A program made the position numbers and the translations under genes. Source: a virus (taxonomy: Duplodnaviria; Heunggongvirae; Uroviricota; Caudoviricetes). Taken from it: DNA of 25,327 nt. Location: positions 1-25,327 of the IMG/VR virus record IMGVR_UViG_2671180357_000004, one strand, 5' to 3'. The notes beneath the pieces are model-generated. The model was not told where the DNA came from, searched no databases, and saw nothing but the letters and a program-made list of their open reading frames with translations. Shown here in pieces: positions 7,875 to 22,736 of this stretch (its first letter is position 1; each line of letters begins with the position of its first letter).

Positions 7875-8382
7875 AATATTAAAAATTTTTTAGAAAAGAA
7901 AAATTACTTCCCAGAACAGGTTTTAATAAAACCTGAACTGAACGAACGAAGTGAGTGAAGTTCACCTCGAACGAAGTGAGAGGTTGTCTTTTCAGGTAAT
8001 ACTCTCCCAGGGAGGTGAGTACAAAATTTCCTCACCAACCTGGTCGTTTCATAACCTGAAAAGTTATGACCTAAGTCTACTGCCAGCTTAGGCTTGGGAA
8101 GTTATGGATGACAGCACCCCAGAACCGAGATCTTCCCACACTTTATGAAGGGGAGTACTGGATTCAACCTCTCGAAACACTCCAGACTCGACAATCATAA
8201 AGTGACCCTTCTCTCTGCCCACTTTGGTTCCCCCTTCCCCAACCCCTAAACGGTGCCGGTTCTACGCTGGTAGTGAGCTTTTTTAAACCTGACGCCAGTG
8301 ACGCTATCCCCCACCCATCAGGTCGAGCTGCCGAAAGTATCCGGAAGCGGATAGATTGTATCACTGGTTAGTGGCGTTTTGA
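7875..8382. other. Roughly 510-bp non-coding region dense in short hairpins and direct repeats (candidate structured RNA, origin or packaging-related site)
   Basis: No convincing ORF. Inverted repeats CAGGTTTTA-ATA-AAACCTG, GTGAA-G-TTCAC, CTCCC-A-GGGAG, GGTGAG..CTCACC, CATAAC..GTTATG; direct repeat CGAACGAAGTGAG x2. Confidence 0.4.
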
Positions 8383-8401
8383 ATGGTAAGTACTTACCTA
8401 T
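8383..8401. repeat. AT-rich dyad motif, copy B (ATGGTAAGTACTTACCTAT; 14-bp perfect palindrome GGTAAGTACTTACC)
   Basis: Immediately 3' of the stop of the 8401..8631 gene. Confidence 0.55.
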
Positions 8402-8631
8402 TATATTAATTGATTAATTTCTCGCCCATGAAGCTGGACGTTCAGGGCAAACACCTCATTGATGAGTTCCCCTAACAGCTGCTCCACCAGCTCTTTGTGC
8501 TCGCCTGAATGAAGACATTTGAGCGACCATTCGTAGAGACTGAAAGCCTTATCGCGATCTTTCATCATGTCGCGCACTGTGGCCAGAAAATCGCTCTCAA
8601 CGAGCGCTACGACGTTCGTCGGGTATACCAT
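8401..8631 (-). CDS. Hypothetical protein (76 aa)
   Basis: ORF in track; ATG at 8629-8631; no recognisable domain. Confidence 0.45.
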   Translation of the reverse strand: MVYPTNVVALVESDFLATVRDMMKDRDKAFSLYEWSLKCLHSGEHKELVEQLLGELINEVFALNVQLHGREINQLI

Positions 8632-8772
8632 GATAGTTTTCCTTACTGTGGTTCATAAAATCGATTCTAGAGCGTCTGGAGAGGGACTCCAGTGGGTTCT
8701 GGAGGTGTAAAACGGTCTGGGAGTTGTTTGGAAATCACGTCTTAAAAAGCCTGCGTCTGTATATATTAATAA

Positions 8773-8791
8773 TTAGTACTTAGTTATTTAT
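8773..8791. repeat. AT-rich dyad motif, copy C (TTAGTACTTAGTTATTTAT; degenerate)
   Basis: Between the Dam-like gene stop and the 76-aa gene. Confidence 0.35.
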
Positions 8792-8833
8792 ATATACGGA
8801 AGCAGGTTCTCAAACTAACTCCCAGACTGGTGT

Positions 8834-9427
8834 TTACGCTGCCTTTTTACGTGGTCTCTTCTTCCTGACAACATTGGCAGGGTCATAACCACCCAGCTTT
8901 TTCATCACCGCCAGCGGTATCTTGCTGATGGTGTGCCCAGCTTCCTGACAGTAGCCACGGAAGATAAGCAACATGCTGCCACCAGGGTTGATGTTCACCT
9001 CCACCAGCCCAAGTTCAACATCCGGCTCAACGAACGCCACGCGGCCGCCAGACAAGATGACGGTTTCGTTGGCGCATTCAGCCGCACGCTCGTACCACTG
9101 CGTATCGAGGGATTGTGGTATCAGCATGACCGTCGTCACTCCACGCGCCTGCTCGCGAATGGCTGCGTCTATCCAGGGGGTGATTTTGGAGTAGGGCGGG
9201 TTAAGGAACGCCACAGTGCCAGGTTCTCCCCAACTGCACTTGAGCGCATCACGCTCAACACCGATAAAGTTCGGCAGGAGAGCATTATCTTTGTTGCAGG
9301 CGACGTCCACATCGAACTTTACGCCTATGTAACGTTGGATGGCGACAAACAACCACTGCGGTGTGCGCCAAAGGTCGCGAAGAGAGGCATCACGCTCTCG
9401 CTTTTTGATTTTTTCGGCTGCGATCAT
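8834..9427 (-). CDS. DNA N6-adenine methyltransferase, small phage Dam-like family
   Basis: 197 aa; RTPQWLF...FLNPPYS (NPPY catalytic motif); ATG at 9425-9427. Confidence 0.8.
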   Translation of the reverse strand: MIAAEKIKKRERDASLRDLWRTPQWLFVAIQRYIGVKFDVDVACNKDNALLPNFIGVERDALKCSWGEPGTVAFLNPPYSKITPWIDAAIREQARGVTTVMLIPQSLDTQWYERAAECANETVILSGGRVAFVEPDVELGLVEVNINPGGSMLLIFRGYCQEAGHTISKIPLAVMKKLGGYDPANVVRKKRPRKKAA

Positions 9428-9439
9428 TACTTTACTCTG

Positions 9440-9459
9440 ATAGGTAAATACTTACCTAT
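9440..9459. repeat. AT-rich dyad motif, copy D (ATAGGTAAATACTTACCTAT; 20-bp palindrome with 1 mismatch)
   Basis: 12 nt upstream of the Dam-like start codon, downstream of a terminator-like hairpin. Confidence 0.55.
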
Positions 9460-9495
9460 TTTTTCATTTAATCCAACGAATAGCAAACAAAGAAG

Positions 9496-9535
9496 AACGC
9501 GCCAGATTCGCAAACGGGAAGCTCTCTGGCGCGTT
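9496..9535 (-). terminator. Putative terminator-like hairpin (- strand)
   Basis: AACGCGCCAGA ... TCTGGCGCGTT 11-bp stem (long 18-nt loop) followed on the - strand by U-rich CTTCTTTGTTTG; a second hairpin CTGGGTA..TACCCAG lies at 9545-9569. Confidence 0.35.
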
Positions 9536-9582
9536 TTATCGATGCTGGGTATGCAATTAGCTTACCCAGCGTCCTAAAGCTC

Positions 9583-10455
9583 TCAGGGTGCTTTAGATCG
9601 TGCAGAGGAACATTGTTCAATGGAATACTCCGCTATGAATTTTTTGACGATCGGCGACTCTTTATTAAGCGTTAGATTTCCACCTTCTCTGGTGACAATG
9701 CCTGTGGCCGGAAACACAGCCATCATCTGGCCAGCCTGAGTCGAAGCCGTGTTAAGTGGATATGGTTTCTCCGGGTAGCTCATTAGCGCCAGTTTAATGC
9801 TATTGCTGGTCGCCGTGTTCGTATCAAGAATATGGCGCATTGCGATTACCGTGTAGACGCTGATTTCCGGGCCACCACTAAACCAGTTCAGGAGGTTTAA
9901 GATTTTGTCTTTCGCTTTGACCGGCGCGCCTTCGAATGCGGCAGTAAAGCGCTCACTATCCAGACCGGCTGTCACATAGAACGATTCATCCTTACCCTCC
10001 AGCGTGAAGCGAGGTTTGGTCGGCGCACGCTTTGATTGTGCCTTCTGGTGTTTTGGCTGCTCTTCTTCAGGTTTAGGCCCAGACTCCACTGAAGGTAAAA
10101 GCGTTGGAGCTATATCGGTGGTCTCAGCGCTTCGAGCATCAAGTTCAGGTGTTGGCTCGTCCACTATCTCCGCAATAGGGCCACGCTCTGGCTCCTCGAC
10201 CTTCACCGATTCGTGTGCAATCTCAAGCTCTTCCAGAACGCCACTCAGATCGCCGGTAGAGCTGACATTCATGACTTCATCTGCCACCGCCTCGACTGGT
10301 TTTGCGATTGCATCATCCAGACCAGAAAGAAGATCGTCGATCTCGTCGACACCGCTCATTTTCGCAGCTTTCTGAACCGGTTCGTCGAGAGATTGCAGCA
10401 TTGCAGTCAATTCATCCAGGTCATCGTTTTTAACAATGTTTGAAACTGCGCTCAT
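9583..10455 (-). CDS. Hypothetical protein with strongly acidic N-terminal region (290 aa from ATG at 10455)
   Basis: ATG MSAVSNIV with SD GGAG; N-terminal 130 aa rich in D/E (DDLDELTAMLQSLDEP...EIDDLLSGLDD). Confidence 0.5.
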   Translation of the reverse strand: MSAVSNIVKNDDLDELTAMLQSLDEPVQKAAKMSGVDEIDDLLSGLDDAIAKPVEAVADEVMNVSSTGDLSGVLEELEIAHESVKVEEPERGPIAEIVDEPTPELDARSAETTDIAPTLLPSVESGPKPEEEQPKHQKAQSKRAPTKPRFTLEGKDESFYVTAGLDSERFTAAFEGAPVKAKDKILNLLNWFSGGPEISVYTVIAMRHILDTNTATSNSIKLALMSYPEKPYPLNTASTQAGQMMAVFPATGIVTREGGNLTLNKESPIVKKFIAEYSIEQCSSARSKAP

Positions 10456-10722
10456 TTTTAACTCCTTATGTTTTCGTTGGTGCATTTCCGCGTTTTGGTT
10501 GAGCTTATTCTGGCAAAACCTATCAGGCAGAAACGTCATAACTACAGGCAGCAAAATAAACTCAAGGCAACTCTACTATCTTGTTCAAAGGAGTTAACTC
10601 GTCTTAAAATTGAATACAAAAGTTCACGTCTAGATAAAATACACAACACCACCACATCATAGGCAAACACTTAAAACGTGTCCTACACATAAAGCATCAC
10701 TAAGCGGTTAATTAGCTTTCAC

Positions 10723-10751
10723 TTGCCTTGCGAATTTTTCTGCCTGATAAT
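10723..10751 (+). promoter_or_regulatory. Candidate sigma70 promoter for the HNH-domain gene
   Basis: TTGCCT (10723-10728), 17-bp spacer, GATAAT (10746-10751); 40 bp upstream of the GTG at 10791. Confidence 0.4.
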
Positions 10752-10790
10752 GTGCATTGATAATAATTCATTAATGAATAGGGCATAATA

Positions 10791-11813
10791 GTGAACAGTG
10801 ATAAGCGGAAACTTTATGTAAATACTCTAGCATTAGATTTGAATATCAAGCCATCCAGACCCTATTACCAAATATTATTAAAAACGATAAAAAAGAAAGT
10901 AGCCGATGGGCAGTCAAAGGCTGAAATCGTCGCTTCTATAAAGAACTCGAAAGAGCACCTTGCCAACATCACACCAACCGGTATTATCAACCATCAGAAA
11001 CAAAATATTAGCTTCAAAAAGACGATGCGCAGTTCTTCCGTTCGGGATGACCTACGTAAGCGAAGAATTGAGTACGTTTTAGAAAAGCGGGAGCTGGAAG
11101 CAAAGGATCGCGCAGCGCGAAAAGAACAAGATGAGAAACGTAAAGCTCTTGAAAAAATCAGGATGGAAAACTTACCTGAAATAGTAGAGAACTGCATCGA
11201 CTTTTCTAAACGTCGTGATTTCCAATTATGGTTTCACCGCACTGGTCAGTATCTGAACACCAGTGCTCAAGGCATTGTTAATGAATTCCTAGCTGAATTC
11301 AAAATTGAAAACCCCATAGTAAAAGCAGAGATTAAATTAATTGGGTCTCCTGAAACTCCTCTTATTGTTACCCAACTACCAATAGAGACTAAGAAAGTTG
11401 AATTTATACCCCAACCACTTCCGTCGAAAAGAGTAGGTGAAAAAGTAACGATTACCAGTCGCCCAGATCAGGCTAAATTCGCAGACTCCGTGGGGGTAAA
11501 CTGCCGCTATACCTGCGTTGTTACTGGTGTCAAAACCAGAGTGCGCTGTGAGGCTGCCCATATCGTTGAGCACAAAGCAGGAGGCGTAGACCATTATACA
11601 AATGGGCTATGGTTGCGAGTGGACATTCACCGTTTATTTGATGCCGGTTTATGCGCAATAGAGCCGTCGACAATGATGATCTACTTTAACCCGATGGTGT
11701 TGATCGACGACCCTGATTTGGAAAAATACCACGCTATCCCCATCTCTCAACCGGTTCGCCCGATAAATCCTGACTACCTTATGGCACGCTGGACGATCTT
11801 CAACATCCGATAG
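10791..11813 (+). CDS. HNH nuclease-domain protein (340 aa; uncharacterised N-terminal region plus C-terminal HNH core)
   Basis: C-terminus CVVTGVKTRVRCEAAHIVEHKAGGVDHYTNGLWLRVDIHRLFDAG matches the Cys...His...N...H...D HNH pattern. Only + strand gene in the phage-like block; visibly AT-rich; GTG start. Confidence 0.7.
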   Translation: MNSDKRKLYVNTLALDLNIKPSRPYYQILLKTIKKKVADGQSKAEIVASIKNSKEHLANITPTGIINHQKQNISFKKTMRSSSVRDDLRKRRIEYVLEKRELEAKDRAARKEQDEKRKALEKIRMENLPEIVENCIDFSKRRDFQLWFHRTGQYLNTSAQGIVNEFLAEFKIENPIVKAEIKLIGSPETPLIVTQLPIETKKVEFIPQPLPSKRVGEKVTITSRPDQAKFADSVGVNCRYTCVVTGVKTRVRCEAAHIVEHKAGGVDHYTNGLWLRVDIHRLFDAGLCAIEPSTMMIYFNPMVLIDDPDLEKYHAIPISQPVRPINPDYLMARWTIFNIR

Positions 11814-11815
11814 CT

Positions 11816-12376
11816 CTAACGTTCGGTCCTTTCGAAAGGAAGTTTGAAGAAGCCGTATTTCTCTCGGGCTTTGAAGAAACACTGCATCATCAGATCAGTA
11901 TCGTAGAGAGCACTGTGGGCTTTCTCACGGTCGTAAGTGAACCCAAGTGAGAATGCCAGCTCTTCCAGGCGTGGGCGCTTCCCATCCTCGGTAGCCCACA
12001 GGGAAAATAGAGTGTCAACCAGAGGGATTTCTGGCAATTTCACTCCATAGCTTCCGAACTCGTGGCGAATGAACGGAAGGTCAAAAGCCTCCCCGTTATG
12101 GGCGACTAACGCGCTACATGCCCCCATATATGCAGCAATCTTACCTGCGTGATCAGCCAACAGCGGTTCAGCAGCCAGTTCTTCCAGAGATATACCATGT
12201 ACAGCCTGCGCCTTCGGATCGATGCTACGACGCGGGTTGAAGCGCATCTCAAGGCTGTCAATGCGCTTCTGGGTTTCCAGTTCATAACGAGATATCGCGA
12301 TTTCGATAATTTTGTGGCCGGATGTGAAGTCCAGCCCCGTGGACTCAATATCGACGCCACCGACAATCGTGGTCAT
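11816..12376 (-). CDS. DnaQ-like 3'-5' exonuclease (DEDDh family)
   Basis: Exo I VDIESTGLD, Exo II HNGEAFDLPF, Exo III HSALYDTDL; SD AAGGAG; ATG at 12374-12376. Confidence 0.8.
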   Translation of the reverse strand: MTTIVGGVDIESTGLDFTSGHKIIEIAISRYELETQKRIDSLEMRFNPRRSIDPKAQAVHGISLEELAAEPLLADHAGKIAAYMGACSALVAHNGEAFDLPFIRHEFGSYGVKLPEIPLVDTLFSLWATEDGKRPRLEELAFSLGFTYDREKAHSALYDTDLMMQCFFKAREKYGFFKLPFERTER

Positions 12377-12385
12377 TGGTACTCC

Positions 12386-12805
12386 TTACAGCTTCTTCGC
12401 GCCTTTCAGCAGTGCGCCACGCACAAACTGAGCAGCCTTTTTTAGTGCGTCCTCGCCGCTTTCGCAGACGACCGGCTCACGCCATTCGCCCGTTGACGTG
12501 TTGAGGAGCTGGATTTGGTTAGTCTCCAGGCAAACGGACACATACAAAACCGTACCGCCCGAGAGTTTGAGATGCATAGGAAACAGAGAGCGCTTGGTGC
12601 CGCCATTGAATTGCGACATCGCCGCATTAATGGCTTCACCAACCTCTTCCCCAACAAGACCTTGAACGGACTCAAACACTGCTCGGATAGCCAGACGTGC
12701 TTCACGTTCACTCATTAAGGAACGGGATTGTTCGTCAGCAATACGGATCAGTGCTTCAATCGCTTTGCGATCTAATTCATCCGACAGGGGAAGTTCATCT
12801 ATCAT
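12386..12805 (-). CDS. Hypothetical protein (139 aa from ATG at 12805)
   Basis: ATG MIDELPL with SD GAGGA; track ORF begins at an upstream TTG. Confidence 0.5.
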   Translation of the reverse strand: MIDELPLSDELDRKAIEALIRIADEQSRSLMSEREARLAIRAVFESVQGLVGEEVGEAINAAMSQFNGGTKRSLFPMHLKLSGGTVLYVSVCLETNQIQLLNTSTGEWREPVVCESGEDALKKAAQFVRGALLKGAKKL

Positions 12806-12868
12806 TCTGTTTTTCCTCAATTCATTTCGCGTGTCTTATTGTCACACTGCCCAACAGGGGAACAACAT

Positions 12869-13513
12869 TCAGTGGAAGGTCACTCGTCCTGTTATACGGC
12901 TCTCGATGTTTTCAGTGGCTCTTTCCAGCACACGCAATACCGATCTGGCTCGCGCCTCAACCGTGCGGCACTTTTCAGAGATAATGAAAACCTGCAAATC
13001 GCCGGTATGGGGAAGGGCACTAATTTTCGTCAGCTCGCCACACATAAGTGCATCGATGCGAGCAACATAGAGACGGTCAAGCGATCCTCGCTGGGGACGC
13101 GCGAGATCTTTGCTGGAAAGATCAACGCCCGGGCGAAGACCCGCTATAGCATTAAAGTTGGAAATGGCCGCTTTGTGGCAAAACTGCTCAATGTCGAGAG
13201 CCAGCTCGATGCAGCGGTCTTCGTTGGTCTGGCCGACCAGGTCAAGCGTATAAGCCATGACATCGGCTGGCGTGCGGTCGATGACAAAACCTTCAACGCC
13301 GCGGGTGATCATCTCGATGTGTCTGGCAATCTCCATCTGAACCTGAAGACGCTCGTAAAGGGGCAAACGCTCGCCAACCTTCACCCCCAGACTGCTCATC
13401 AGCTTGCCAACACCAGCATCCACATACGGAATGCCATAGTGCGCATCGATGTACCTTGCCAGGGTTGTTTTCCCACTGCCCTGTGCGCCAGTGATTCCAA
13501 TCCGGTAATCCAT
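12869..13513 (-). CDS. P-loop nucleotide kinase, dNMP kinase-like
   Basis: Walker A IGITGAQGSGKTTLA near N-terminus; overall pattern recalled as resembling phage dNMP kinases; start overlaps the DHFR stop (TAATG). Confidence 0.55.
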   Translation of the reverse strand: MDYRIGITGAQGSGKTTLARYIDAHYGIPYVDAGVGKLMSSLGVKVGERLPLYERLQVQMEIARHIEMITRGVEGFVIDRTPADVMAYTLDLVGQTNEDRCIELALDIEQFCHKAAISNFNAIAGLRPGVDLSSKDLARPQRGSLDRLYVARIDALMCGELTKISALPHTGDLQVFIISEKCRTVEARARSVLRVLERATENIESRITGRVTFH

Positions 13514-13989
13514 TACGACCTTCTGTATACGATCTGCAAAAAGCCAGGCTCATCCTCATTTGCACGTTGGGTATAAGCCGTTTCGACTGGTACGAACCCT
13601 AAAGAACGCATCATTGGCGCCGGGAAGAACGCATCCGCGCCCGACACATCCACGCCAATATGCGACAGCCAGATCTCTTCAACGTGTGGCATAAAGAGCG
13701 AGTAAATCTGCCCGCCACCAATCACCCAGACCGGATCTGGTAGTTTTAAAACGTCATCGATGCCAGCGGGGTAGAAACCATTGGGGATATAACCACGAGA
13801 GCGCGTCAAAACGAGGTTATGGCGCTCTGGCAGCGGGCGTTTGAGACTTTCCATCGTCTTACGTCCCATCACGACAGTGGCGTTTTTGGTGAGTTGTTTG
13901 AACAGTTTCAGATCGGTCGGGCAACGCCAGGGAAGTTCGTTGCCAATGCCGATTTCATAGTTGCGGCCGACAGCTGCAATCATCTTCAT
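13513..13989 (-). CDS. folA: Dihydrofolate reductase
   Basis: IGIGNELPWRCPTDLKLFKQLT, VVMGRKTMESL, VIGGGQIY align to E. coli FolA; 158 aa. Confidence 0.85.
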   Translation of the reverse strand: MKMIAAVGRNYEIGIGNELPWRCPTDLKLFKQLTKNATVVMGRKTMESLKRPLPERHNLVLTRSRGYIPNGFYPAGIDDVLKLPDPVWVIGGGQIYSLFMPHVEEIWLSHIGVDVSGADAFFPAPMMRSLGFVPVETAYTQRANEDEPGFLQIVYRRS

Positions 13990-14399
13990 TGGCTTACCTC
14001 ATAGATGGTTGGTCGCTGGTGAGAATCTGCCAGCGCAGAACGCAGACGCGGATCATGAACCAGTGCGGCGATAAGTAAGTCGCCTTTGTGCTCTGCCAGC
14101 GTGCGCTTGATATGGGTTTCAAAACTGACACCGCGCGGAACCAGGTGGAGCCAGTCATAATCAATGCCGAAGTCCTTCAGCCAGCGCTTGGTTGGGCCTT
14201 CGAGCGCTTCCGGACGACTACTGATAAGCACCACTTCAGCACCGGAGCGAGCAAAACCACGCAACATGCGGCTGGTGGGAAAGATGAGTTCATCACCGGC
14301 AATAAGAGCGCCTGCATCCGCATCAGGCACTGCTTTGCGATGGCTGGCTCTCGCCAGCACACCTTCAATTTCACACAACACATACATCCCTCTGGCCAT
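13986..14399 (-). CDS. Hypothetical protein (137 aa from ATG at 14399); weak HAD-like pattern
   Basis: ATG 1 nt after the thyA stop; stop overlaps the DHFR start (ATGA). MYVLCEIEGVL resembles HAD motif I but with Cys/Glu in place of the Asp residues, so function is uncertain. Confidence 0.4.
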   Translation of the reverse strand: MARGMYVLCEIEGVLARASHRKAVPDADAGALIAGDELIFPTSRMLRGFARSGAEVVLISSRPEALEGPTKRWLKDFGIDYDWLHLVPRGVSFETHIKRTLAEHKGDLLIAALVHDPRLRSALADSHQRPTIYEVSQ

Positions 14400-14400
14400 A

Positions 14401-15516
14401 TCACACCGCCACTGGAACCTTGATCCACGGAAGAGGGCTGTAGCCGCACACCTGCACACCTTCCCATTTGAAGTCGTCCAGTTCGGCCCATTCATGCGGG
14501 AAGATGACAACCGGGTCGGACTCTTTGGGCGGCTCGCGCTTCATCAGTTCCTCAACGCCTTCCATGTGGTTGTCGTAGAGATGAACGTCAAAGCCAAAAT
14601 GCACGAATGCGCCAGCCATGTGGCCGGTGATCTTCGCGAGGAAGTGGGTGAGAATGCCGTAACCGGCGATGTTGAACGGCATACCAACAAAGGTATCGAC
14701 ACTGCGTTGAACCAGGCATGAGTTCAGAATGCGTTTCGGGATGCCCAGCTCGTCCAGCATGTTCTCAGTAATGCCGCCATCTCTTTCCAGAAGACACAGC
14801 ATCTGGGTGTAAATGGACTCGTGGCCGTGGCGGTTGTGCTGTATGCCAATGTCGGTGGCCATAGTCAGTCGGGTCTCAAAGTCCAGCTCGCGACTCCACA
14901 GTGAAAACACGAAATGGCATGGCGGCAGCTTCATATCTTCCAGTTCGCCAACATTCCAGGCATTCAGCAGGATGCGACGATCTGTAGGGTTGGTGCGAAG
15001 CGTGTCAACGATACGCTGTAGCTGGTCAATTTCACGGGACAACACAACGCGATCTTCACTTACGCCCAGATACCCCTCGACCTTGTACCCGCGCTCACGG
15101 AACGTGTCGATTTTGCGCAGATACTCGCTATGGCTCACGATGCGAGTGTCTTCCCACCGACGCCATTGCTTGCCATAGACCGGGCCTAAATCGCCATTTT
15201 CATCGGCCCAGGCATCCCAGATTTTGACGCCATTGTCTTTCAGGAACTGGATGTTGCCTGTTCCTTTGAGATACCACTCCAGCTCAACCAGTAACGGCTT
15301 CAGATTGACGGCTTTTCCGGAGATAAGTGGAACAGATCCGCCCGTCAGCATGTAGTAGGAAGGGACATATGAAACACTTTTTGTGCCGGTTCCGGTGCGA
15401 TCACCCGCGTGAACGCCAGTGTTGAGCACCGTTTCAACCACTTTGGCATACGAACCACTGGCAAACTGACCGTTCGTAAAGTCTCGATTCAGTAGGATAG
15501 ACAAAATCAACCTCAC
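14401..15516 (-). CDS. thyA: Thymidylate synthase (ThyA family) with two internal insertions
   Basis: DRTGTGT, WADENGDLGPVYGKQWR, RRILLNAWNVGELEDMKLPPCHF, QRSVDTFVGMPFNIAGY, PWIKVPVAV. 371 codons vs about 264 in E. coli ThyA; start codon uncertain (GTG at 15516, or TTG a few codons downstream). Confidence 0.85.
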   Translation of the reverse strand: MRLILSILLNRDFTNGQFASGSYAKVVETVLNTGVHAGDRTGTGTKSVSYVPSYYMLTGGSVPLISGKAVNLKPLLVELEWYLKGTGNIQFLKDNGVKIWDAWADENGDLGPVYGKQWRRWEDTRIVSHSEYLRKIDTFRERGYKVEGYLGVSEDRVVLSREIDQLQRIVDTLRTNPTDRRILLNAWNVGELEDMKLPPCHFVFSLWSRELDFETRLTMATDIGIQHNRHGHESIYTQMLCLLERDGGITENMLDELGIPKRILNSCLVQRSVDTFVGMPFNIAGYGILTHFLAKITGHMAGAFVHFGFDVHLYDNHMEGVEELMKREPPKESDPVVIFPHEWAELDDFKWEGVQVCGYSPLPWIKVPVAV

Positions 15517-15521
15517 ACAAG

Positions 15522-15540
15522 ATAAGTAAGTACATACATA
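15522..15540. repeat. AT-rich dyad motif, copy E (ATAAGTAAGTACATACATA; degenerate)
   Basis: Between the terminator at 15591-15621 and the thyA start. Confidence 0.4.
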
Positions 15541-15590
15541 TTATTTTATGCAAGTTTATCTGTCAGAAGTGTGTAAGGCTAGGAGGGGAG

Positions 15591-15621
15591 TAAAAAAAAT
15601 GGTGGCTCTTCGGCCACCATT
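15591..15621 (-). terminator. Rho-independent terminator (- strand)
   Basis: On the - strand: AATGGTGGC-cgaaga-GCCACCATT hairpin followed by U8. Confidence 0.6.
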
Positions 15622-15674
15622 GCAATGAGCAATTAAGAACTTGGACAATAAAACACGCCAAGGCAATATATAAT

Positions 15675-15691
15675 GATAAGTACTCACTTAC
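15675..15691. repeat. AT-rich dyad motif, copy F (GATAAGTACTCACTTAC)
   Basis: Overlaps the stop codon of the 15684..16562 gene. Confidence 0.4.
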
Positions 15692-16562
15692 AATTATTTT
15701 TTACCATCTCGTAAAGAGATGAGGACTTCGCCTTCTCAACAAAGCAAGTCAGATCCACATCGCTGTAGGTGGGAGATTTGAGGATCTTGCCATCAGAAAC
15801 CCTGAAACCGATCATCATGTCAGTCCCTTCAGCATGGCGGAACCCCAGATCTTCCTTATCGTATTTGCAATTCTCTACCGCCACACGACGCTCTTCGGCG
15901 TCAGCCGGCCACAGCTTGGTCATGTTGGAACGGTGGATTTCTGCCACCAGCTCAACAATATCGATTCCGAGAAAATCAGCCAGACGGTAGGTCATCATGC
16001 AGGCAACGTAGATTTTGTTCATCACGCGGCGCAGCTCCTGCACCAATTCGGAATCGCTTATCGGCTTCGCTTCAAGTTTGTCAGCCAGCGCATTCAGCAT
16101 TAATGCAGCTTCTTTTGCTTCTTCAAACGGGATAGCCATATCGTCAAAGACCGTGTTGCCCGGAACCATGATGGTGTGGATGAAGCGATCAACACTCTGC
16201 TCTTGGGTGTAGTAACTCATGCCCGTCGAGATGCCGCCTTTGATGGCCACCATTGTGCCGACGCCCACGTAAAGGAAGTCAGCCATCGCGTCCAGCAGTG
16301 CCGTCATATCCCCATTTTTGGCTGCCGGGATGCCCTCGGTAACTGCTTCTTCGTGGATCAGCTTGGCACGCAGACGTAGTAATGCCGGATCTGGAATGGC
16401 ACGGCGTGGGTGCTGAAACAGTGTGTGGAACTGGTCAACCATCAGGTAGATGCTTTCCGTTGTCTTGCCGAAACCGGGATTCAACTCGTAAGGCTCTGGT
16501 TTAAACCCCACGAGTTTGTCTGCGGCAAGTTTCAGATGATCGGTCAGTTTCGTAAATTTCAT
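15684..16562 (-). CDS. Hypothetical protein (292 aa); tentatively an all-alpha NTP pyrophosphohydrolase (MazG-like)
   Basis: ATG with SD AAGGAAAG; segments LIHEEAVTEGIPAAKNGDMTALLDAMADFLYV and YRLADFLGIDIVELVAEIHRSNMTKL resemble MazG-type motifs (weak, from memory). Confidence 0.45.
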   Translation of the reverse strand: MKFTKLTDHLKLAADKLVGFKPEPYELNPGFGKTTESIYLMVDQFHTLFQHPRRAIPDPALLRLRAKLIHEEAVTEGIPAAKNGDMTALLDAMADFLYVGVGTMVAIKGGISTGMSYYTQEQSVDRFIHTIMVPGNTVFDDMAIPFEEAKEAALMLNALADKLEAKPISDSELVQELRRVMNKIYVACMMTYRLADFLGIDIVELVAEIHRSNMTKLWPADAEERRVAVENCKYDKEDLGFRHAEGTDMMIGFRVSDGKILKSPTYSDVDLTCFVEKAKSSSLYEMVKNNCK

Positions 16563-16763
16563 GTTTTCTTTCCTTTAGACTTCTTTTGATACGCCAATTT
16601 TGACCCAGCAGCGCCAGGCCACAAAGTGGTTAAACTCGGCTTAGAGGTATTCGAACTGGCTCGGGCCAGTGCAATCGACAGCGAACTTTGTCAGCGCTTC
16701 ATGCAGCTGGCAGCGGCTCGGTGGGCGTTACGTTTTACGATGCTTATTATGTGTAGCCCAATT

Positions 16764-16789
16764 AAAAAGACCACTATATATAGTGGTCT
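16764..16789 (-). terminator. Rho-independent terminator (- strand)
   Basis: 20-bp perfect palindrome GACCACTATATATAGTGGTC followed on the - strand by TTTTT. Confidence 0.5.
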
Positions 16790-16796
16790 CATGGTA

Positions 16797-16816
16797 ATAG
16801 ATAAGCACTTACCTAT
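16797..16816. repeat. AT-rich dyad motif, copy G (ATAGATAAGCACTTACCTAT)
   Basis: Between the RuvC-like gene stop and the terminator. Confidence 0.5.
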
Positions 16817-16827
16817 CAATTATCAAC

Positions 16828-17397
16828 TTATAAAATTCCAGCAAGAACATCGCGAACCTGACGGAATTGATCAGTTTGCATACCGGTGTAAATCGATGCG
16901 ACAGCGTCCGCAAGGTGCTCGTTTTTATTCACCAGCACTTCCTTGCCCGATTGCTTCCGGCGCAACCACGGGGCGTTTGGCTGCTTCTGCGTAGCCCACT
17001 GAATGATCTCTTCTTTCGACGTAGTCAGCTTATTCCCGACATAGTACTTAATCTCGTTTGGCGTGACCTGTATCAGTGGCTTATCCACACACGCCAGTAC
17101 GCCAAGACAACCACCATAAGAAACCATCGCTCTAGCAGATTGACTGCCTACTGGCAGTTCACAGAACACTAAATGAACTTGGTCAATCAGTGGCTTAATA
17201 CCACGCCAAATCTCGTTCAACCGCCGCATATCGTCACTGTTAACGCGAACTTGCTTTTTCGTATCACCAGCTTTCGTCTCAATGAGATGCAACTTATTGA
17301 CCTGCAATGCACCTGAATCCAGTTCTATTTCTCCGATGGCAACGCCAAAATTTGACAGAGATGGATCGAGACCTGCAACTTTGATTACTTTTTTCAC
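16828..17397 (-). CDS. RuvC-like Holliday junction resolvase
   Basis: KVAGLDPSLSNFGVAIG, LVFCELPVGSQSARAMVSYGGCLGVLACV, NEHLADAVASIYTG resemble RuvC catalytic regions; GTG start with SD GGAGG. Confidence 0.65.
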   Translation of the reverse strand: MKKVIKVAGLDPSLSNFGVAIGEIELDSGALQVNKLHLIETKAGDTKKQVRVNSDDMRRLNEIWRGIKPLIDQVHLVFCELPVGSQSARAMVSYGGCLGVLACVDKPLIQVTPNEIKYYVGNKLTTSKEEIIQWATQKQPNAPWLRRKQSGKEVLVNKNEHLADAVASIYTGMQTDQFRQVRDVLAGIL

Positions 17398-17591
17398 TCT
17401 GTGACCTCCATTTCAACAAAATGCGGTAGATTGTGCTCTTCGATAAATCGCTTACGCGCTAAGTAAGCCTCCAATTCATCGTGACATTGATACAAGAAGA
17501 CACACTCTCCTTTCCACACAACTCTAGCAACCCAAACCTTGTTCGTTTTGCAGTAATGAACGCCAGTAAACTTCGACGTACTACCATCCAC
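17394..17591 (-). CDS. Small AP2-like DNA-binding domain protein (65 aa)
   Basis: GVHYCKTNKVWVARVVWKGECVFLYQCHDELEAYLAR resembles the AP2 fold pattern; GTG start with SD AAGGGAAA; stop overlaps the RuvC-like start (GTGA). Confidence 0.45.
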   Translation of the reverse strand: MDGSTSKFTGVHYCKTNKVWVARVVWKGECVFLYQCHDELEAYLARKRFIEEHNLPHFVEMEVTE

Positions 17592-17727
17592 TTTCCCTTG
17601 TTTATTTGCACTCTGGACGTGCTTGTCAGCCCACCTCAGATTCCCTGGTTCATATCCCTTGCTGGAGTCGATGCGATCAAGCGTAACCCCCTCTACAACT
17701 CTCTCCGTATCGGAAATTTTGGTCTCC

Positions 17728-18474
17728 TTACCACGTAGCCCAGGTTGGGCATTCCATTAGTTTCTGTTCAAGTGTCTTCTCCGGCTCGCGAGTTGGCGGC
17801 TTCGGAATGTCGTTAACTACGTGAATGCCATCGTTGATCAGAACGCCTGCAGCAATATCTGCATCAATCATGCTCTGGCCGATGAAATGCCGCATGATGT
17901 CAATAAGTTGGCACGCAGCCTTTTCATTCGCGTTGAATACGTGGGGGAGGAGAACTTCAATAATCGCTACTTCACATCCCTTCTCGTAAAAGCAGAGTTT
18001 CGCCCGCTTTGAAATTGGCGCGTGCCGGTCATAGTCAACAGAGAAGCTGGCGAAGGCAGCACCCGGCATTGCAACGTGATCCGCGCGTGCGTTAGCGTGT
18101 CGAATCAGATTAGTGAATGCGGTGCTGATGTGCGTCTCCATTGCATTGAAGAGTGCATTTTCTTGGATGTTCAGCGTTCCGGTTTCAGGAATCACAACGA
18201 ACCCCGGCCCAGAATGTGGGAGATATCCACCTTCCGTAAATGGATTAATAAGGATCGGCGCAGTGCTTCCTGACGGCAGATTAGCCAAGCTCGGCATCAA
18301 AGGAGTCGATGACAATAGATTGGTTAATACCGAGAACTGGTCGTCGCTGATGTTTACGTTTTTCCACAAAAGTGCAGGCGGAGTTACTTTTGCTGTATGG
18401 TTGTTTATCAGCTTTATAGACTGCATCACGGCAAACATCTGCAAAAACTGCGTGCGGCTCAAGTTAAACGACAT
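17728..18474 (-). CDS. Hypothetical protein (248 aa)
   Basis: ATG with SD AGAGGGG; no recognisable domain. Confidence 0.5.
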   Translation of the reverse strand: MSFNLSRTQFLQMFAVMQSIKLINNHTAKVTPPALLWKNVNISDDQFSVLTNLLSSTPLMPSLANLPSGSTAPILINPFTEGGYLPHSGPGFVVIPETGTLNIQENALFNAMETHISTAFTNLIRHANARADHVAMPGAAFASFSVDYDRHAPISKRAKLCFYEKGCEVAIIEVLLPHVFNANEKAACQLIDIMRHFIGQSMIDADIAAGVLINDGIHVVNDIPKPPTREPEKTLEQKLMECPTWATW

Positions 18475-20380
18475 AGCTGCGCCCCTCTTTAACTTCGACA
18501 GTGATAATTTCCCGGAACCACGATTTCATCTCTTTGTGGGAGATGATCATCACTGTGCCACGTTCACGCGCTTTGGCTTCCAGAATCCCCATGAGACGCT
18601 CCAGACCGGCTGTGTCGAGCGCGTCGTCAATTTCATCACCGATAAATAGCTCGATATTCTTACTGGCGCGACTGGCAACCAGATCCTGCAAAGCCAGAGA
18701 GCACGCAATACGTACCTTACGCTTCTCACCACCAGACAAAGTCTGGAAGGATTTGCTGGAGCCTGTTTTGATTACGCTGATATTGAATTTGTCGCGATAC
18801 TCACCTTTCTTCGTTGTCTCCATTGTCGACCATTCGGCAACGATATTGCCGTCCGACAGCGTGTTGAGATACTCCGCAGTCCTGATGTTCAGGAAAGGCG
18901 TAACGGAGGTCAGGATGTGTGAACGCACGCCTGCTGGGGAGTAAACCTGGCGGGCCTTCTCCAGCAACAGAGCCTGTTCCTGAATGCTCTTTAACTCATT
19001 TTTAAGTACTGCATGATTAGATTTATTGGCAGCCAGGTTGTCTTCATGGCGCTTAATAACGGCCAGAAATGGGTTTGTTTCCGCCATGATGCGATTCACT
19101 TCAGTACGCGCCCGCGCAACCATCGCTTCGACGGCCACAACTTCACGTTCGCGATGACGCAGCGCACTTAGCTCATTGGTCAGGCGTTCTATTGTGGAGA
19201 TGATTTCTGAGACGTCGGGTGTAGCTGCGACCAGTGCAGACTCGATACCGAGCGCTTTCTCAAGACGAGCCTTGTGTTGAGCCACTGCCGCTGCTGATGT
19301 CTGCGCAAGGCCGATCTCATTGCGCGCTTGTTCAATGAAGCTCTCCTTCACCGTGGATAAATCTTCTTCGCAGTAGGGCTTTCCGCACGTAATGCAGGGT
19401 GCCCCGATCTTTGTGCTGACCTCTTCAGCTTTGGTTTTAAACGAGCGAGCACGGTTTATCGACTCGTTCTGTGCCGCTTCTGAAGTACGGATGCTTGAGC
19501 GGATCTCAGTAATAGCACTGCGCACCTTCAGCAGTTTGGCGTCATGCTCTTCTTTGGAGGCCAGCTTGCTGCGTTCGCCAGCAATCGCGTTTTCCGTATC
19601 ACGGATCTGTTCCGGCAGCGAGCGAATTTCCATCTCGACTTCAGACAGTGTTACCTCCGCGCCAGCCAAATCGGCTCGGGCCTTGTCCAGACGCTCGCCG
19701 CGATCGCGCTCCCAGCTTTCAGAGGACGCTTTGGCCGCCTCAATCTCTGACTGTGCAGTCTCGATAAGCGTGAGACAGGCGTCCATTTTGGATTTGGTAA
19801 CGTCCATACGTGCGGCAGCTGCATTAGCACGCTCGCGGGCAATGGCATAGGCTCGCGTCAATCGGTCGACGCCAGCAGCTTCTTCAACGATGGTTTTGAG
19901 GCTCTTGTCGGACATACCGGGCAGATCTGGCATCGCTTCCTGACTGGCGTAGATGGACGCCATGAACACCTCTTTCGATGCCCCAATCAGACGTTCTACG
20001 AACGTCTGTGTCAGCGTGTCCTTGCCTTTGGTCATATCACCGTCTTCACCACGGACGATTAGTCGGTTCTTGAACTCTTTGTGTTTACGATGGCGAATGA
20101 TCGCGTATTTCTTACCTTCGTCTTCAACTGTAACCATCACACGGCAGTTCTTCTCATGGCCCGTCGACAGCACATCATCGCCTTTGACGCCATGTGCAGT
20201 CTCACCATACAGACACCACATTAAGCTATTCATCAGAGTGGATTTCCCGGCGCCATTGCTGGCAGCAGACGTATCGCCACTGTTCACACCCTGGATCAGC
20301 ACCAGTCCACGCTGGTCTAACTCGACTTCTGCGCTGGCGATTGCCATAAAATTTTCAACCTGGAGCTTTAAAAACTTCAT
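18464..20380 (-). CDS. sbcC: SbcC/Rad50-like ATPase (recombination nuclease subunit)
   Basis: 638 aa from ATG MKFLKLQVENF (SD GAGGTG). Walker A NGAGKST, zinc hook CITCGKP, signature LSGGEKRKV, Walker B LFIGDEIDDALD, H-loop IISHKE, long coiled-coil middle. Confidence 0.85.
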   Translation of the reverse strand: MKFLKLQVENFMAIASAEVELDQRGLVLIQGVNSGDTSAASNGAGKSTLMNSLMWCLYGETAHGVKGDDVLSTGHEKNCRVMVTVEDEGKKYAIIRHRKHKEFKNRLIVRGEDGDMTKGKDTLTQTFVERLIGASKEVFMASIYASQEAMPDLPGMSDKSLKTIVEEAAGVDRLTRAYAIARERANAAAARMDVTKSKMDACLTLIETAQSEIEAAKASSESWERDRGERLDKARADLAGAEVTLSEVEMEIRSLPEQIRDTENAIAGERSKLASKEEHDAKLLKVRSAITEIRSSIRTSEAAQNESINRARSFKTKAEEVSTKIGAPCITCGKPYCEEDLSTVKESFIEQARNEIGLAQTSAAAVAQHKARLEKALGIESALVAATPDVSEIISTIERLTNELSALRHREREVVAVEAMVARARTEVNRIMAETNPFLAVIKRHEDNLAANKSNHAVLKNELKSIQEQALLLEKARQVYSPAGVRSHILTSVTPFLNIRTAEYLNTLSDGNIVAEWSTMETTKKGEYRDKFNISVIKTGSSKSFQTLSGGEKRKVRIACSLALQDLVASRASKNIELFIGDEIDDALDTAGLERLMGILEAKARERGTVMIISHKEMKSWFREIITVEVKEGRSYVV

Positions 20381-20568
20381 ATAACACCTCTGATATCGTG
20401 TGTTAACTTTTGACCATCTTTCAATCTGAACTCCGTATGCGCGGGGAAGGATCTGCGATTCAATAAGCCTTTTCTGGTTAGCCTTCCAAGATAAAACGCT
20501 ACGGGATTTCCTCCTGAAGGGTATGGCTTGTGAAACATAACCGTCTGGCCTTTTTGAAGTTTTTTCAT
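20377..20568 (-). CDS. Small hypothetical protein (63 aa) translationally coupled to sbcC
   Basis: ATG MKKLQKG; stop TGA overlaps the sbcC ATG (ATGA). Confidence 0.4.
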   Translation of the reverse strand: MKKLQKGQTVMFHKPYPSGGNPVAFYLGRLTRKGLLNRRSFPAHTEFRLKDGQKLTHDIRGVI

Positions 20569-20609
20569 CACGATGGCAAACTCTCGAAAGCTCCCATAAT
20601 AACTTTGCC

Positions 20610-21695
20610 TCACACAGCCTCCGCACTCTCTGCTTCGGTCAAGATCTCCTGACACAGTATGTCCAGCTTGCTCAGGTCGAAGCCGCCGTCAGTGTCGTGA
20701 ACGATCTTGCAGTACGCCGCAACGGACTCGCCCAGGCTGTCAATCTTGCTGGTCTCCGCAGTACTGGCAGCGCCTTCCATCATCGATGCCTTGCGAATGA
20801 AGTTGCAGACGACACCCTTCGCGCCCATTGTTTTCAGGACGTTCTGAAGTTTGATGCCTTCTTCATCGCTCTCAACAACGGCACGGAAGCGCACGTAGTT
20901 ACCGCGAATCTGATCGTCATCTACATCGTCCTCAAGGTTCACGAATTTAGGTGCCGAGGTTTCGTGGTGAGTGAATGAGCCGTCCGGTTTGACGATCATG
21001 AAGCCGGCCAGTGAACCAACATCCCCCCAATTCTGGTGTGTCAGCGCCCCGATACTTACCACTCCAGGCAGCACTTCTTTGTGGTTGTGGTAGTGCCCGG
21101 ACAACAATAAACGGAAGCCGATATCTTTCAGTTCCTGTGCGTCGATGCCGACATCGGGCATAGTGGGGATCGCTTTGTTGATTGAGGTATGTACAACAAC
21201 ATCATGGTTGTCACCATCCAGCCCGGAACGCAGCGTTTTGAGATCGCTGATAAGTTCTGCGTGGTTATTACGCCAGCTAATCAGATGGACGGTTACGTCG
21301 CCCATTTTGATGGAATGAGGACGTTTGCCGCAGACGATTTCCACACCGATTGAGCGCAGAGAGGCTGCTGCATTGGCGCTGTATACGGAATCGTTGGTTT
21401 CGAGGTCGTGGTTGCCAGCCAGCATTACCACCTTGAGACCCAACTCTTTGATGATCCACTCGTAAGTTTCGGTCACGAAATGCAGAACGGAAGGTGATAT
21501 AGCACCGCGAACATGGAAGGTATCACCAGCTACCAGCATGTGCTTACAGCCAGCAGCTTTCATCGCTTTGGCCGCCTCCTTCGTAGCGTCCAGTTGGATC
21601 TCCAGCCGAGAGTTAAGCCCGTCAGCGTTTGTTGTCGCAAAAGCATCCCAACGATGATAATGGGGATCTGATATTACCCCGTATGGCAATGTCAT
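20610..21695 (-). CDS. sbcD: SbcD/Mre11-like nuclease (calcineurin-like phosphoesterase)
   Basis: ISDPHYH, VAGDTFH, LAGNHD, SGHYHNH motifs; SD AAGGAAAAG. Confidence 0.85.
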   Translation of the reverse strand: MTLPYGVISDPHYHRWDAFATTNADGLNSRLEIQLDATKEAAKAMKAAGCKHMLVAGDTFHVRGAISPSVLHFVTETYEWIIKELGLKVVMLAGNHDLETNDSVYSANAAASLRSIGVEIVCGKRPHSIKMGDVTVHLISWRNNHAELISDLKTLRSGLDGDNHDVVVHTSINKAIPTMPDVGIDAQELKDIGFRLLLSGHYHNHKEVLPGVVSIGALTHQNWGDVGSLAGFMIVKPDGSFTHHETSAPKFVNLEDDVDDDQIRGNYVRFRAVVESDEEGIKLQNVLKTMGAKGVVCNFIRKASMMEGAASTAETSKIDSLGESVAAYCKIVHDTDGGFDLSKLDILCQEILTEAESAEAV

Positions 21696-21810
21696 GTGTC
21701 TTTTCCTTTGTGGTTATTTTGATACAAATTCTAAGCGTGCATAAGAGGCGTACAACTCATACAACACGGCACACAAAAGAATATAAAGGCACATGATAAT
21801 GATAAAAAAA

Positions 21811-21830
21811 TAAGTAAGTAAATACCTATC
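21811..21830. repeat. AT-rich dyad motif, copy H (TAAGTAAGTAAATACCTATC)
   Basis: In the 396-bp spacer upstream of the sbcD-like start. Confidence 0.4.
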
Positions 21831-22091
21831 AGATAGAGCGGCAACGATTTCTAAACGTCACAAGCAATTTTATGAGAGCAGTCATTTACTGATGACAAGA
21901 AATGAAAAAGGAGAACGAACGGTGAAGTTGTGAGATGACATTTACGGCGTTTGCGTGCGTCGTCTTCAAACGCATCCGTCGGCCACAGTTTCTGCTCTTG
22001 AATAAAATTCACTCATGCATTAATCCCTAAAGCTCTCAGTGTCTTTCTAAGACACCATATTTTATGCCCGGTAAAAAGCATGAGTTTGCCT

Positions 22092-22736
22092 TTAAAACGT
22101 CTCTGAAGGCTTCTGACGCGCTCTGCTGATGTCTATTACCCCAGCTTTTGGACGAGGGTCTACAAGATTCAACTCTTCAGCACTGTGATACTCCGTGTCG
22201 AACTCCCGATCGACATGGCGAATGTAGATGGCTGTCAGAAGGCTGTTATCATTCAGAAAGTGTCCGTAAGATTTGTGAATTACTTCGCTAACCTTCTCAA
22301 TCTTCTCTCCGCCCATGCAGAGATGGTTAAATCGGCTGTGTTTCCGCAGCATTTCATCCACCGGGCCTGAGTAGACCTTATCAACTCTCCCGAACCGGAT
22401 GATATTTCCGGTATCAGCTTCAACCAGACAAACGAGTTTGCCAGGTTCGACACGATCTCGCCAAGTGACACCAGAGCGCAGTGTGTTGAAGTAGGGAGCA
22501 TCCAATCCGATGATCGGTTTACGAAATGCTAGTAGTGGCACGTAACGTATGCAGCTGTTTAGGTGGAAATGCGCACCGGCGTCGTGGAGTTTAAGCCGGG
22601 TTTCGTTAATCGGGCATTTCGAAGCAATGCCGCAAAGGTCGCAGAGCAACTTCTGTTTGTTCAGACTAGTGTTTGATTCAATGGTGTAGGAGCCATCTTC
22701 AAGACGGCGAACCCAGCGCGTGCGTTTAAGATCCAT
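22092..22736 (-). CDS. Hypothetical protein (214 aa)
   Basis: ORF in track; ATG at 22734-22736; contains CDLCGIASKCP; no confident domain call. Confidence 0.5.
   Translation of the reverse strand: MDLKRTRWVRRLEDGSYTIESNTSLNKQKLLCDLCGIASKCPINETRLKLHDAGAHFHLNSCIRYVPLLAFRKPIIGLDAPYFNTLRSGVTWRDRVEPGKLVCLVEADTGNIIRFGRVDKVYSGPVDEMLRKHSRFNHLCMGGEKIEKVSEVIHKSYGHFLNDNSLLTAIYIRHVDREFDTEYHSAEELNLVDPRPKAGVIDISRARQKPSETF

Follow-up and report, generated by a model that had tools for sequence, protein, structure and literature searches.

We analysed a stretch of 25,327 nucleotides, referred to here as the window, that makes up positions 1 to 25,327 of the IMG/VR virus record IMGVR_UViG_2671180357_000004. 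The window is an SSU5-like IncFIB phage-plasmid and, in the stretches compared, is ~99.6-99.8% identical to plasmid pTB212 of Escherichia coli ECCHD184. Our reading, to which we give a probability of about 0.45, is that a lone gene for an HNH protein at 10791..11813 is an accessory moron of this phage-plasmid and encodes a putative single-polypeptide defence or exclusion nuclease, built along Type IV-like lines but with a new front end. The union of a rare helical N-terminal region with an HNH nuclease of the type found in modification-dependent restriction endonucleases (MDRE) is an uncharacterised architecture. Taken by itself, the nuclease does not stand out within its known superfamily, and a specialist would be surprised by the protein only if the N-terminal region turned out to be a new sensor.

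The HNH protein and its likeness to known nucleases

Profile and structure comparisons show that the C-terminal 117 residues of the protein are a predicted intact HNH_2 (His-Me finger) nuclease. For the N-terminal part, the structure prediction that an earlier note on this DNA had proposed was obtained with AlphaFold2 and gives a four-helix bundle, a 65-residue helix, a three-helix domain and a disordered linker, so that the gene and the parts of its product can be laid out as follows (pLDDT, predicted local distance difference test; dN/dS, ratio of nonsynonymous to synonymous substitution rates).

10791..11813, + strand: HNH gene, 340 amino acids, GTG start, weak AGGG Shine-Dalgarno sequence 8 nt upstream; 18-amino-acid in-frame deletion relative to the common 358-amino-acid form
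10818..10970, + strand: small four-helix bundle, residues 10-60, without known relative (AlphaFold2)
10974..11168, + strand: one continuous helix of ~65 residues, highly charged (E/K/R-rich), residues 62-126 (AlphaFold2)
11172..11297, + strand: three-helix domain, residues 128-169, with the motif (R/N)(D/E)FxLW and a nearly invariant F144
11310..11459, + strand: predicted disordered linker, residues 174-223 (pLDDT 34-43; dN/dS 0.40)
11460..11810, + strand: HNH_2 nuclease module, residues 224-340, with RPDQxxF helix, beta-beta-alpha-metal core and family-specific C-terminal extension (DPDL...RPINP...RW)
11559-11561, 11601-11603 and 11628-11630, + strand: His257, Asn271 and His280, predicted catalytic residues

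The HNH core that the earlier note had seen at the C-terminus is borne out by Pfam HNH_2 (PF13391), which matches residues 242-291 with 42.2 bits against a gathering cut-off of 21 (E = 7.3e-11). The same model matches 27 of the 29 collected family sequences, the other two being a truncated protein and a repetitive artefact. H257, N271 and H280 do not vary among 31 sequences and align to the ASH, NG and DH residues of VcaM4I. In the AlphaFold2 model, the nuclease has strands at 253-257 and 272-276 followed by a helix at 277-284, with a pLDDT of ~90 (76 for the whole protein). Foldseek comparison of the nuclease with solved structures placed TagI and VcaM4I best (probability 1.0), then EcoKMcrA and ScoMcrA, all four of them Type IV enzymes that depend on DNA modification, and a nuclease profile run against PDB sequences found VcaM4I at E = 3.9e-8 and TagI at 0.019. 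The sole NCBIfam match, NF045808 (phosphorothioate-dependent restriction enzyme), lies in the nuclease part (residues 215-295) and scores 27.5 bits against a cut-off of 180.

The N-terminal region is rare, with 25 cluster representatives among 1.84 billion, of which ~24 are genuine (one is a repetitive artefact) and one is a truncated protein. All complete genuine members are fused to HNH_2, and none carries another effector domain. The earlier note had called the N-terminal 230 residues unrecognisable; this stands in that no known domain or defence model matches them, but the part outside the HNH module measures ~213-223 residues. On the model, the 65-residue helix may serve as a spacer of the single alpha-helix kind or else form a coiled coil, and the three-helix domain is the best-conserved stretch of the region. 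Two candidate assignments were rejected. Variable helix-turn-helix domains at the N-terminus (single-member Pfam matches to DUF433, HTH_32, Phg_2220_C and CcmH) all came from the repetitive artefact P0030, and a ribbon-helix-helix at residues 138-170 was unsupported, as AlphaFold2 gives helices only.

Comparison of two SSU5-type alleles gave a dN/dS of 0.25 for the N-terminal region, 0.12 for its helix and three-helix part and 0.075 for the nuclease module. These values indicate that the whole protein is maintained by selection; the N-terminal ~213 residues are under purifying selection. The allele of the window and pTB212 differs from the 358-amino-acid allele by an in-frame deletion of 54 bp (18 amino acids) at ~10968-10975. 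This deletion removes a basic patch, STGLPAKSTTKKSRTKGT, that lies between the imperfect direct repeats CACATCCACAGG and CACACCAACCGG.

The two halves of the gene also differ in composition. The earlier note had described the gene as more AT-rich than its neighbours, which is true overall (42.9% guanine plus cytosine [GC] in the open reading frame versus ~50% in the neighbours and backbone) but not of the HNH module, at 49% GC (53% at third codon positions, GC3). The deficit is confined to the 239 bp upstream (33.9%) and the first 213 codons (39.3%; GC3, 38%), while the HNH module is backbone-like, and this suggests that the gene is a mosaic or that its halves are under different constraints.

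Among characterised enzymes, the closest in design are TagI (SRA-HNH, 6ghs) and VcaM4I (EVE-HNH, 6yex), which are also the best structural matches (Foldseek probability 1.0 over 115-121 aligned columns, with 20-21% identity). Like the HNH protein, each consists of one polypeptide in which an RxxQxxF helix leads into a C-terminal HNH_2-type nuclease, each is encoded by a solitary gene without a methyltransferase, and in each an N-terminal targeting part precedes the nuclease, an order that the HNH protein would share if its N-terminal region has the predicted targeting role. However, the N-terminus of the HNH protein is all-helical and bears no similarity to SRA, EVE/PUA or other known modified-base readers, and a search of the protein for SRA, EVE/PUA, SBD, winged helix, McrA-N and DUF3427 domains found none. 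Membership of Type IV cannot be claimed because the defining reader domain was not found. ScoMcrA and SprMcrA (SBD-HNH; NF045808; 5zmm) and EcoKMcrA (6ghc) have a homologous nuclease domain, but the nuclease part alone aligns, and sulfur-binding, SRA and McrA N-terminal domains are all lacking from the HNH protein. The same nuclease module, at 42-52% identity, is present in HNH proteins of large enterobacterial conjugative plasmids, IncHI2 plasmids among them (QED79121.1, 291 amino acids; WP_007372337.1, 239 amino acids). These proteins are shorter and do not have the four-helix bundle and long helix of the window protein; QED79121.1 does have a short charged helix and the three-helix motif, whereas the N-terminus of WP_007372337.1 differs and is common to a Yersinia relative (P0010).

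A separately promoted cassette within a variable intergenic hotspot

The HNH gene occupies a cassette of its own, with the following features in and around it.

~10552..11828, no strand: cassette of ~1.28 kb with one gene, delimited by blastn and hand alignment against four elements (L002, L003, L031 and L032)
10723..10751, + strand: sigma-70-like promoter of the HNH gene, TTGCCT-17-GATAAT, from a consensus scan (9/12 matches)
11816..12376, - strand: convergent 3'-5' exonuclease gene (DEDDh/RNase_T)
9583..10554, - strand: backbone gene of the left flank, divergent from the HNH gene, encoding a hypothetical protein (290 amino acids in the pTB212 annotation)
8834-9427: Dam-family methyltransferase gene, two genes from the HNH gene

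In 'empty' SSU5-like plasmids, the place of the cassette is taken by ~39-42 bp that include the terminator hairpin of the exonuclease gene. The flanks of the cassette are 99.0-99.9% identical up to the junctions to those of empty plasmids (S56 plasmid B and pGS04EC-1), and the only fixed differences between the flanks of elements with and without the HNH gene are at 11837 and 11840. On the left the boundary is not sharp, and partial similarity persists as far as 10570. Comparison of related phage-plasmids at this exact junction, as the earlier note had proposed, found the gene in 1 of 175 related plasmids (pTB212 alone) and in 1 of the 22 complete E. coli genomes that have the region; the cassette was also not found in SSU5. 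With the gene missing from 174 of the 175 plasmids and from SSU5, flanks that are ~99% identical, and other cargo at the site, the earlier description of an acquired moron is upheld.

What other elements carry at this site varies. Most Enterobacter, Citrobacter and Salmonella pHCM2-type plasmids have ~42 bp. SSU5 (L001) has 336 bp with a + strand open reading frame for 33 hydrophobic amino acids and a terminator. In some Klebsiella SSU5-like plasmids the site is occupied by a + strand gene, oriented as the HNH gene is, for a 368-amino-acid GTPase (MMR_HSR1 plus DUF697). Differing + strand cargo at one site across lineages indicates a cargo-swapping hotspot, and these comparisons show that the HNH gene lies on a separately promoted cassette within a variable intergenic hotspot. 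The SSU5 reading frame (MNSEKLESVGKKLITGVIAVAVVEYAYLLIRFF; L001 ~3835-3936) is unannotated in the record and is followed by a strong terminator hairpin; from its sequence, it resembles genes for small membrane peptides or type I toxins. The GTPase gene (L026 2117-3223, from Klebsiella pneumoniae plasmid NZ_CP034047.1) gave weak LeoBC/LeoA-like matches in PADLOC. The HNH, SSU5-filler and GTPase reading frames all begin MN(S/I)(D/E). A promoter and start region common to the HNH cassette and either the SSU5 filler or the GTPase gene was looked for with blastn-short and MAFFT and was rejected, as the matches of only 8-10 nt are attributable to chance.

A single junction is common to all 11 HNH-positive loci examined, and the common allele of 358 amino acids (P0001) is always found at it. 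Among HNH-positive elements whose 3-kb flanks are 0.8-2.1% apart, the 1332-bp cassette is identical (0/1332 differences), and single-nucleotide polymorphisms (SNPs) cluster near the junctions with variable end points. An identical cassette in diverged flanks, together with these variable end points, indicates recent spread among backbones by recombination. A second allele (P0002, 74% identical) occupies the same site in a diverged element (L013) whose flanking proteins have 65-91% amino acid identity and whose backbone is 75-78% identical. The presence of this allele at the same site in a diverged lineage indicates that the HNH gene is also an old resident of the locus.

The setting of the gene is much as the earlier note had drawn it. 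The large open reading frames of the window from 4754 to 22736 are on the - strand apart from the HNH gene, which is also the sole + strand gene in the annotation of the equivalent 13.5 kb of pTB212, so that a lone + strand gene in a - strand nucleotide-metabolism cluster is confirmed. Its neighbours are genes for the Dam methyltransferase, the 3'-5' exonuclease, an AAA_28 ATPase, DHFR, thymidylate synthase and PRA-PH. The length of 340 codons given for 10723-11813 is correct, but 10723 marks where the promoter-like site begins, and the gene starts at 10791. The promoter proposed for the gene is present as a sequence and, despite a backbone identity of 75-78%, is kept in L013 as TTGCCA-17-GATAAT together with the start region; however, it matches the consensus at only 9 of 12 positions, and such sites are not above chance in the region (5 found versus 3.5 +/- 2.0 expected). 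An exact 13-nt inverted repeat, TATCAGGCAGAAA / TTTCTGCCTGATA (10521-10533 / 10737-10749), lies upstream of both divergent genes. The copy in the HNH promoter overlaps the spacer and the -10 hexamer, and the pair could be a shared operator. The repeat is borderline by chance (estimated P ~0.04), 9 of its 13 positions are kept in L013, and we have not built on it. An Rfam scan of 10300-12000 gave no match.

At the right-hand end, the TAG stop of the HNH gene (11811-11813) is 2 nt from the convergent stop of the exonuclease gene (11816-11818), the distance stated earlier. The cassette has remodelled the C-terminus of the exonuclease, which ends ...FERTER* here and ...FESA* in empty plasmids. The intrinsic terminator of the exonuclease gene (GCGCC-TGAT-GGCGC and a T-run in empty plasmids and L013) is missing from 11814-11841 of the window, and the palindrome CCTTTCGAAAGG (11828-11839) is the sole such element between or over the convergent gene ends. 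As the genes end 2 nt apart without a hairpin, the convergent transcripts should overlap. L013 has kept the hairpin, which there lies 3' of the HNH gene; hence, its loss is specific to the lineage of the window.

Relatives on other mobile elements

Relatives of the HNH protein occur in a range of settings. One (P0007) is in a CP4-type chromosomal island, directly beside hsdRMS. Another, in an island with a P4-type integrase (L037), directly follows genes for a DpdE/ZorD-like SNF2 helicase (2336 bits) and a HigA-like protein. A third (P0010) is in the cargo region of a Yersinia integrative and conjugative element (ICE), ~7.7 kb from a gene for an OLD-type ATPase; P0003 adjoins an integrase gene, P0006 directly follows the Rep_3 initiator gene of a small Rep_3 plasmid, and one full-length relative is a one-gene islet among housekeeping genes. 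In the contexts examined there was no conserved partner gene and no co-inherited methyltransferase. These contexts show that the relatives are carried singly, as cargo, by many kinds of mobile element, and that two of them lie immediately next to known defence systems. The L037 island (1-12345) encodes a family member of 472 amino acids, the SNF2 helicase, the HigA-like helix-turn-helix protein, a second HNH-like protein of 318 amino acids and a protein of 1083 amino acids, and looks like a composite defence island.

The nuclease module is far more widespread. A tblastn search of PLSDB found all 135 residues of the module, at 42-52% identity, in 1,265 plasmids, of which 1,036 are predicted to be conjugative; for a module so common, the term 'undescribed system' used by the earlier note is too strong. 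The module-bearing plasmids sampled were mostly of 175-370 kb with up to four copies each, and the one that was typed was IncHI2. Plasmid paralogues of the module (L034 6674-7393 and L035 6629-7504) are uncharacterised and have differing N-termini. In phage genomes only the nuclease module was found, and in few phages. The search of IMG/VR confirmed 19 loci. Among species-representative genomes, 19 pattern matches yielded 0 confirmed relatives, which points to accessory DNA of mobile elements. The literature searched does not mention pTB212, ECCHD184 or the family's protein accessions; papers on IncHI2 plasmids use the HNH gene as a landmark only, and a survey of SSU5-group phage-plasmids names other defence systems but not the HNH gene.

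Defence or exclusion weighed against other roles

The earlier note had left the choice between a defence or exclusion nuclease and a homing endonuclease open, and the evidence now leans towards defence or exclusion. As a free-standing homing endonuclease, the protein would cut the cassette-less allele near the junction of the hypothetical gene and the exonuclease gene, and recombinational repair would copy the cassette whenever two SSU5-like elements share a cell. The sporadic presence of the gene at one fixed intergenic site in near-identical backbones fits this proposal, as do the cassette that is 100% identical among backbones with flanks 0.8-2.1% apart, the SNP clusters with variable breakpoints at the junctions, which resemble co-conversion tracts, and the 74%-identical allele at the same site in a backbone that is only 75-78% identical. 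The insertion also replaces the would-be target, so that the HNH-positive allele would be immune. Like the free-standing HNH homing endonuclease genes of phages (I-HmuI, T4 Mob family), the gene is a sporadic insertion amid conserved phage genes and is found in identical copies where the backbones have diverged. However, ordinary recombination explains the identical cassette and the SNP clusters equally well, and in L013 the allele has diverged to much the same extent as the genes that flank it (74% versus 65-91% amino acid identity), a pattern equally compatible with long residence. The nuclease belongs to an HNH_2/Type IV-like clade and not to the subfamily of I-HmuI and Mob, it is C-terminal, and the relatives are mostly outside phages, in chromosomal islands, an ICE, small and large plasmids and a housekeeping islet, with no homing context. 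Pfam found no NUMOD, AP2 or IENR1-type module in the window protein or its relatives, and the homing-endonuclease model of PADLOC was not matched. The frequency among E. coli elements is low (1/22), and a gene with its own sigma-70 promoter, convergent to a - strand cluster, would suit expression in the carrier state better than during co-infection. Hence we favour defence or exclusion over homing, because the nearest characterised relatives of the nuclease module are Type IV enzymes, the family is found as single-gene cargo in defence islands, an ICE and plasmids, and no homing DNA-binding module is present; homing is in our estimation improbable.

A role in the element's own DNA transactions seems unlikely to us too. 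The protein would then be a low-specificity HNH enzyme that nicks or cuts DNA in recombination, replication restart or the processing of entering DNA, and not in immunity, with the helical region as an oligomerisation or tethering device. The module is spread like a backbone gene over 1,265 plasmids (1,036 conjugative), often in multiple copies; one member directly follows a Rep_3 initiator gene; and the window gene is inside a DNA-metabolism cluster, adjoining an exonuclease gene. HNH proteins that lack a sensor can act as frequent nickases; ScoA3III is a reported case (PMC6765204). Yet the gene is dispensable for SSU5-like elements, being absent from 174 of 175, and its site is a cargo hotspot. 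It is neither co-oriented nor co-transcribed with the DNA-metabolism genes, it has no conserved partner gene, and relatives adjoin restriction-modification and DpdE/ZorD-like genes in chromosomal islands. The protein might alternatively be an orphan Type II-like restriction endonuclease, with self-protection by the Dam-family methyltransferase of the element (8834-9427) or by host Dam. The best PADLOC match, a weak one, is to an HNH model that carries the label Type II restriction enzyme (E = 2.5e-5), the HNH_2 group takes in AlwI, BbrI and HphI (PMC5714182), and the methyltransferase gene is two genes away. However, that gene lies off the cassette and belongs to the core of every SSU5-like element, whether or not the cassette is there, and relatives elsewhere have no adjacent methyltransferase of their own; since the methyltransferase is not linked to the cassette, we regard this last explanation as very improbable.

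Several observations count against a defence or exclusion nuclease. The N-terminal region resembles no known domain, sensor or modification reader; the label 'sensor' given to it in the earlier note thus has no counterpart among known sensors, and Type IV specificity is an analogy only. PADLOC-DB v2.0.0 gave no full-length system-specific match, only generic HNH models in the nuclease part (E = 1e-5 to 4e-4). The association with defence islands comes from a handful of contexts and not from a statistical enrichment. The nuclease module is near-core in many conjugative plasmids of IncHI2 size and could act there in plasmid maintenance or DNA processing. An identical cassette in diverged backbones at a fixed site is also expected from homing.

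If the HNH protein is a defence or exclusion nuclease, its gene would be transcribed from its own sigma-70 promoter during maintenance of the plasmid-prophage, against the direction of the - strand phage genes around it. The helical region may target or regulate the nuclease through dimerisation or DNA binding, or by detecting some feature of invader DNA, for example a modified base. Foreign phage or plasmid DNA would then be nicked or cut by the HNH domain, so that the lysogen and the element are protected. A further proposal, which we consider possible but rather doubtful, is that the helical region is a new sensor of invader DNA or DNA modification, or a molecular ruler, and forms with the MDRE-type HNH an unrecognised single-gene restriction or defence family on enterobacterial phage-plasmids, ICEs, islands and, in shortened form, IncHI2 plasmids.

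As a single gene of 1 kb is involved, either answer is cheap to get. A homing endonuclease would represent an unusual use of an HNH_2-type nuclease, in a plasmid-prophage. A defence nuclease would add a new targeting domain to the modular restriction enzymes that combine a sensor with an HNH nuclease. It would also mean that SSU5-like phage-plasmids, which are common in E. coli, Salmonella, Klebsiella and Shigella, swap lysogen-protecting cargo at a fixed intergenic hotspot, and that the module carried by more than 1,200 large resistance plasmids is a possible barrier to phages, including phage therapy agents, and to competing plasmids.

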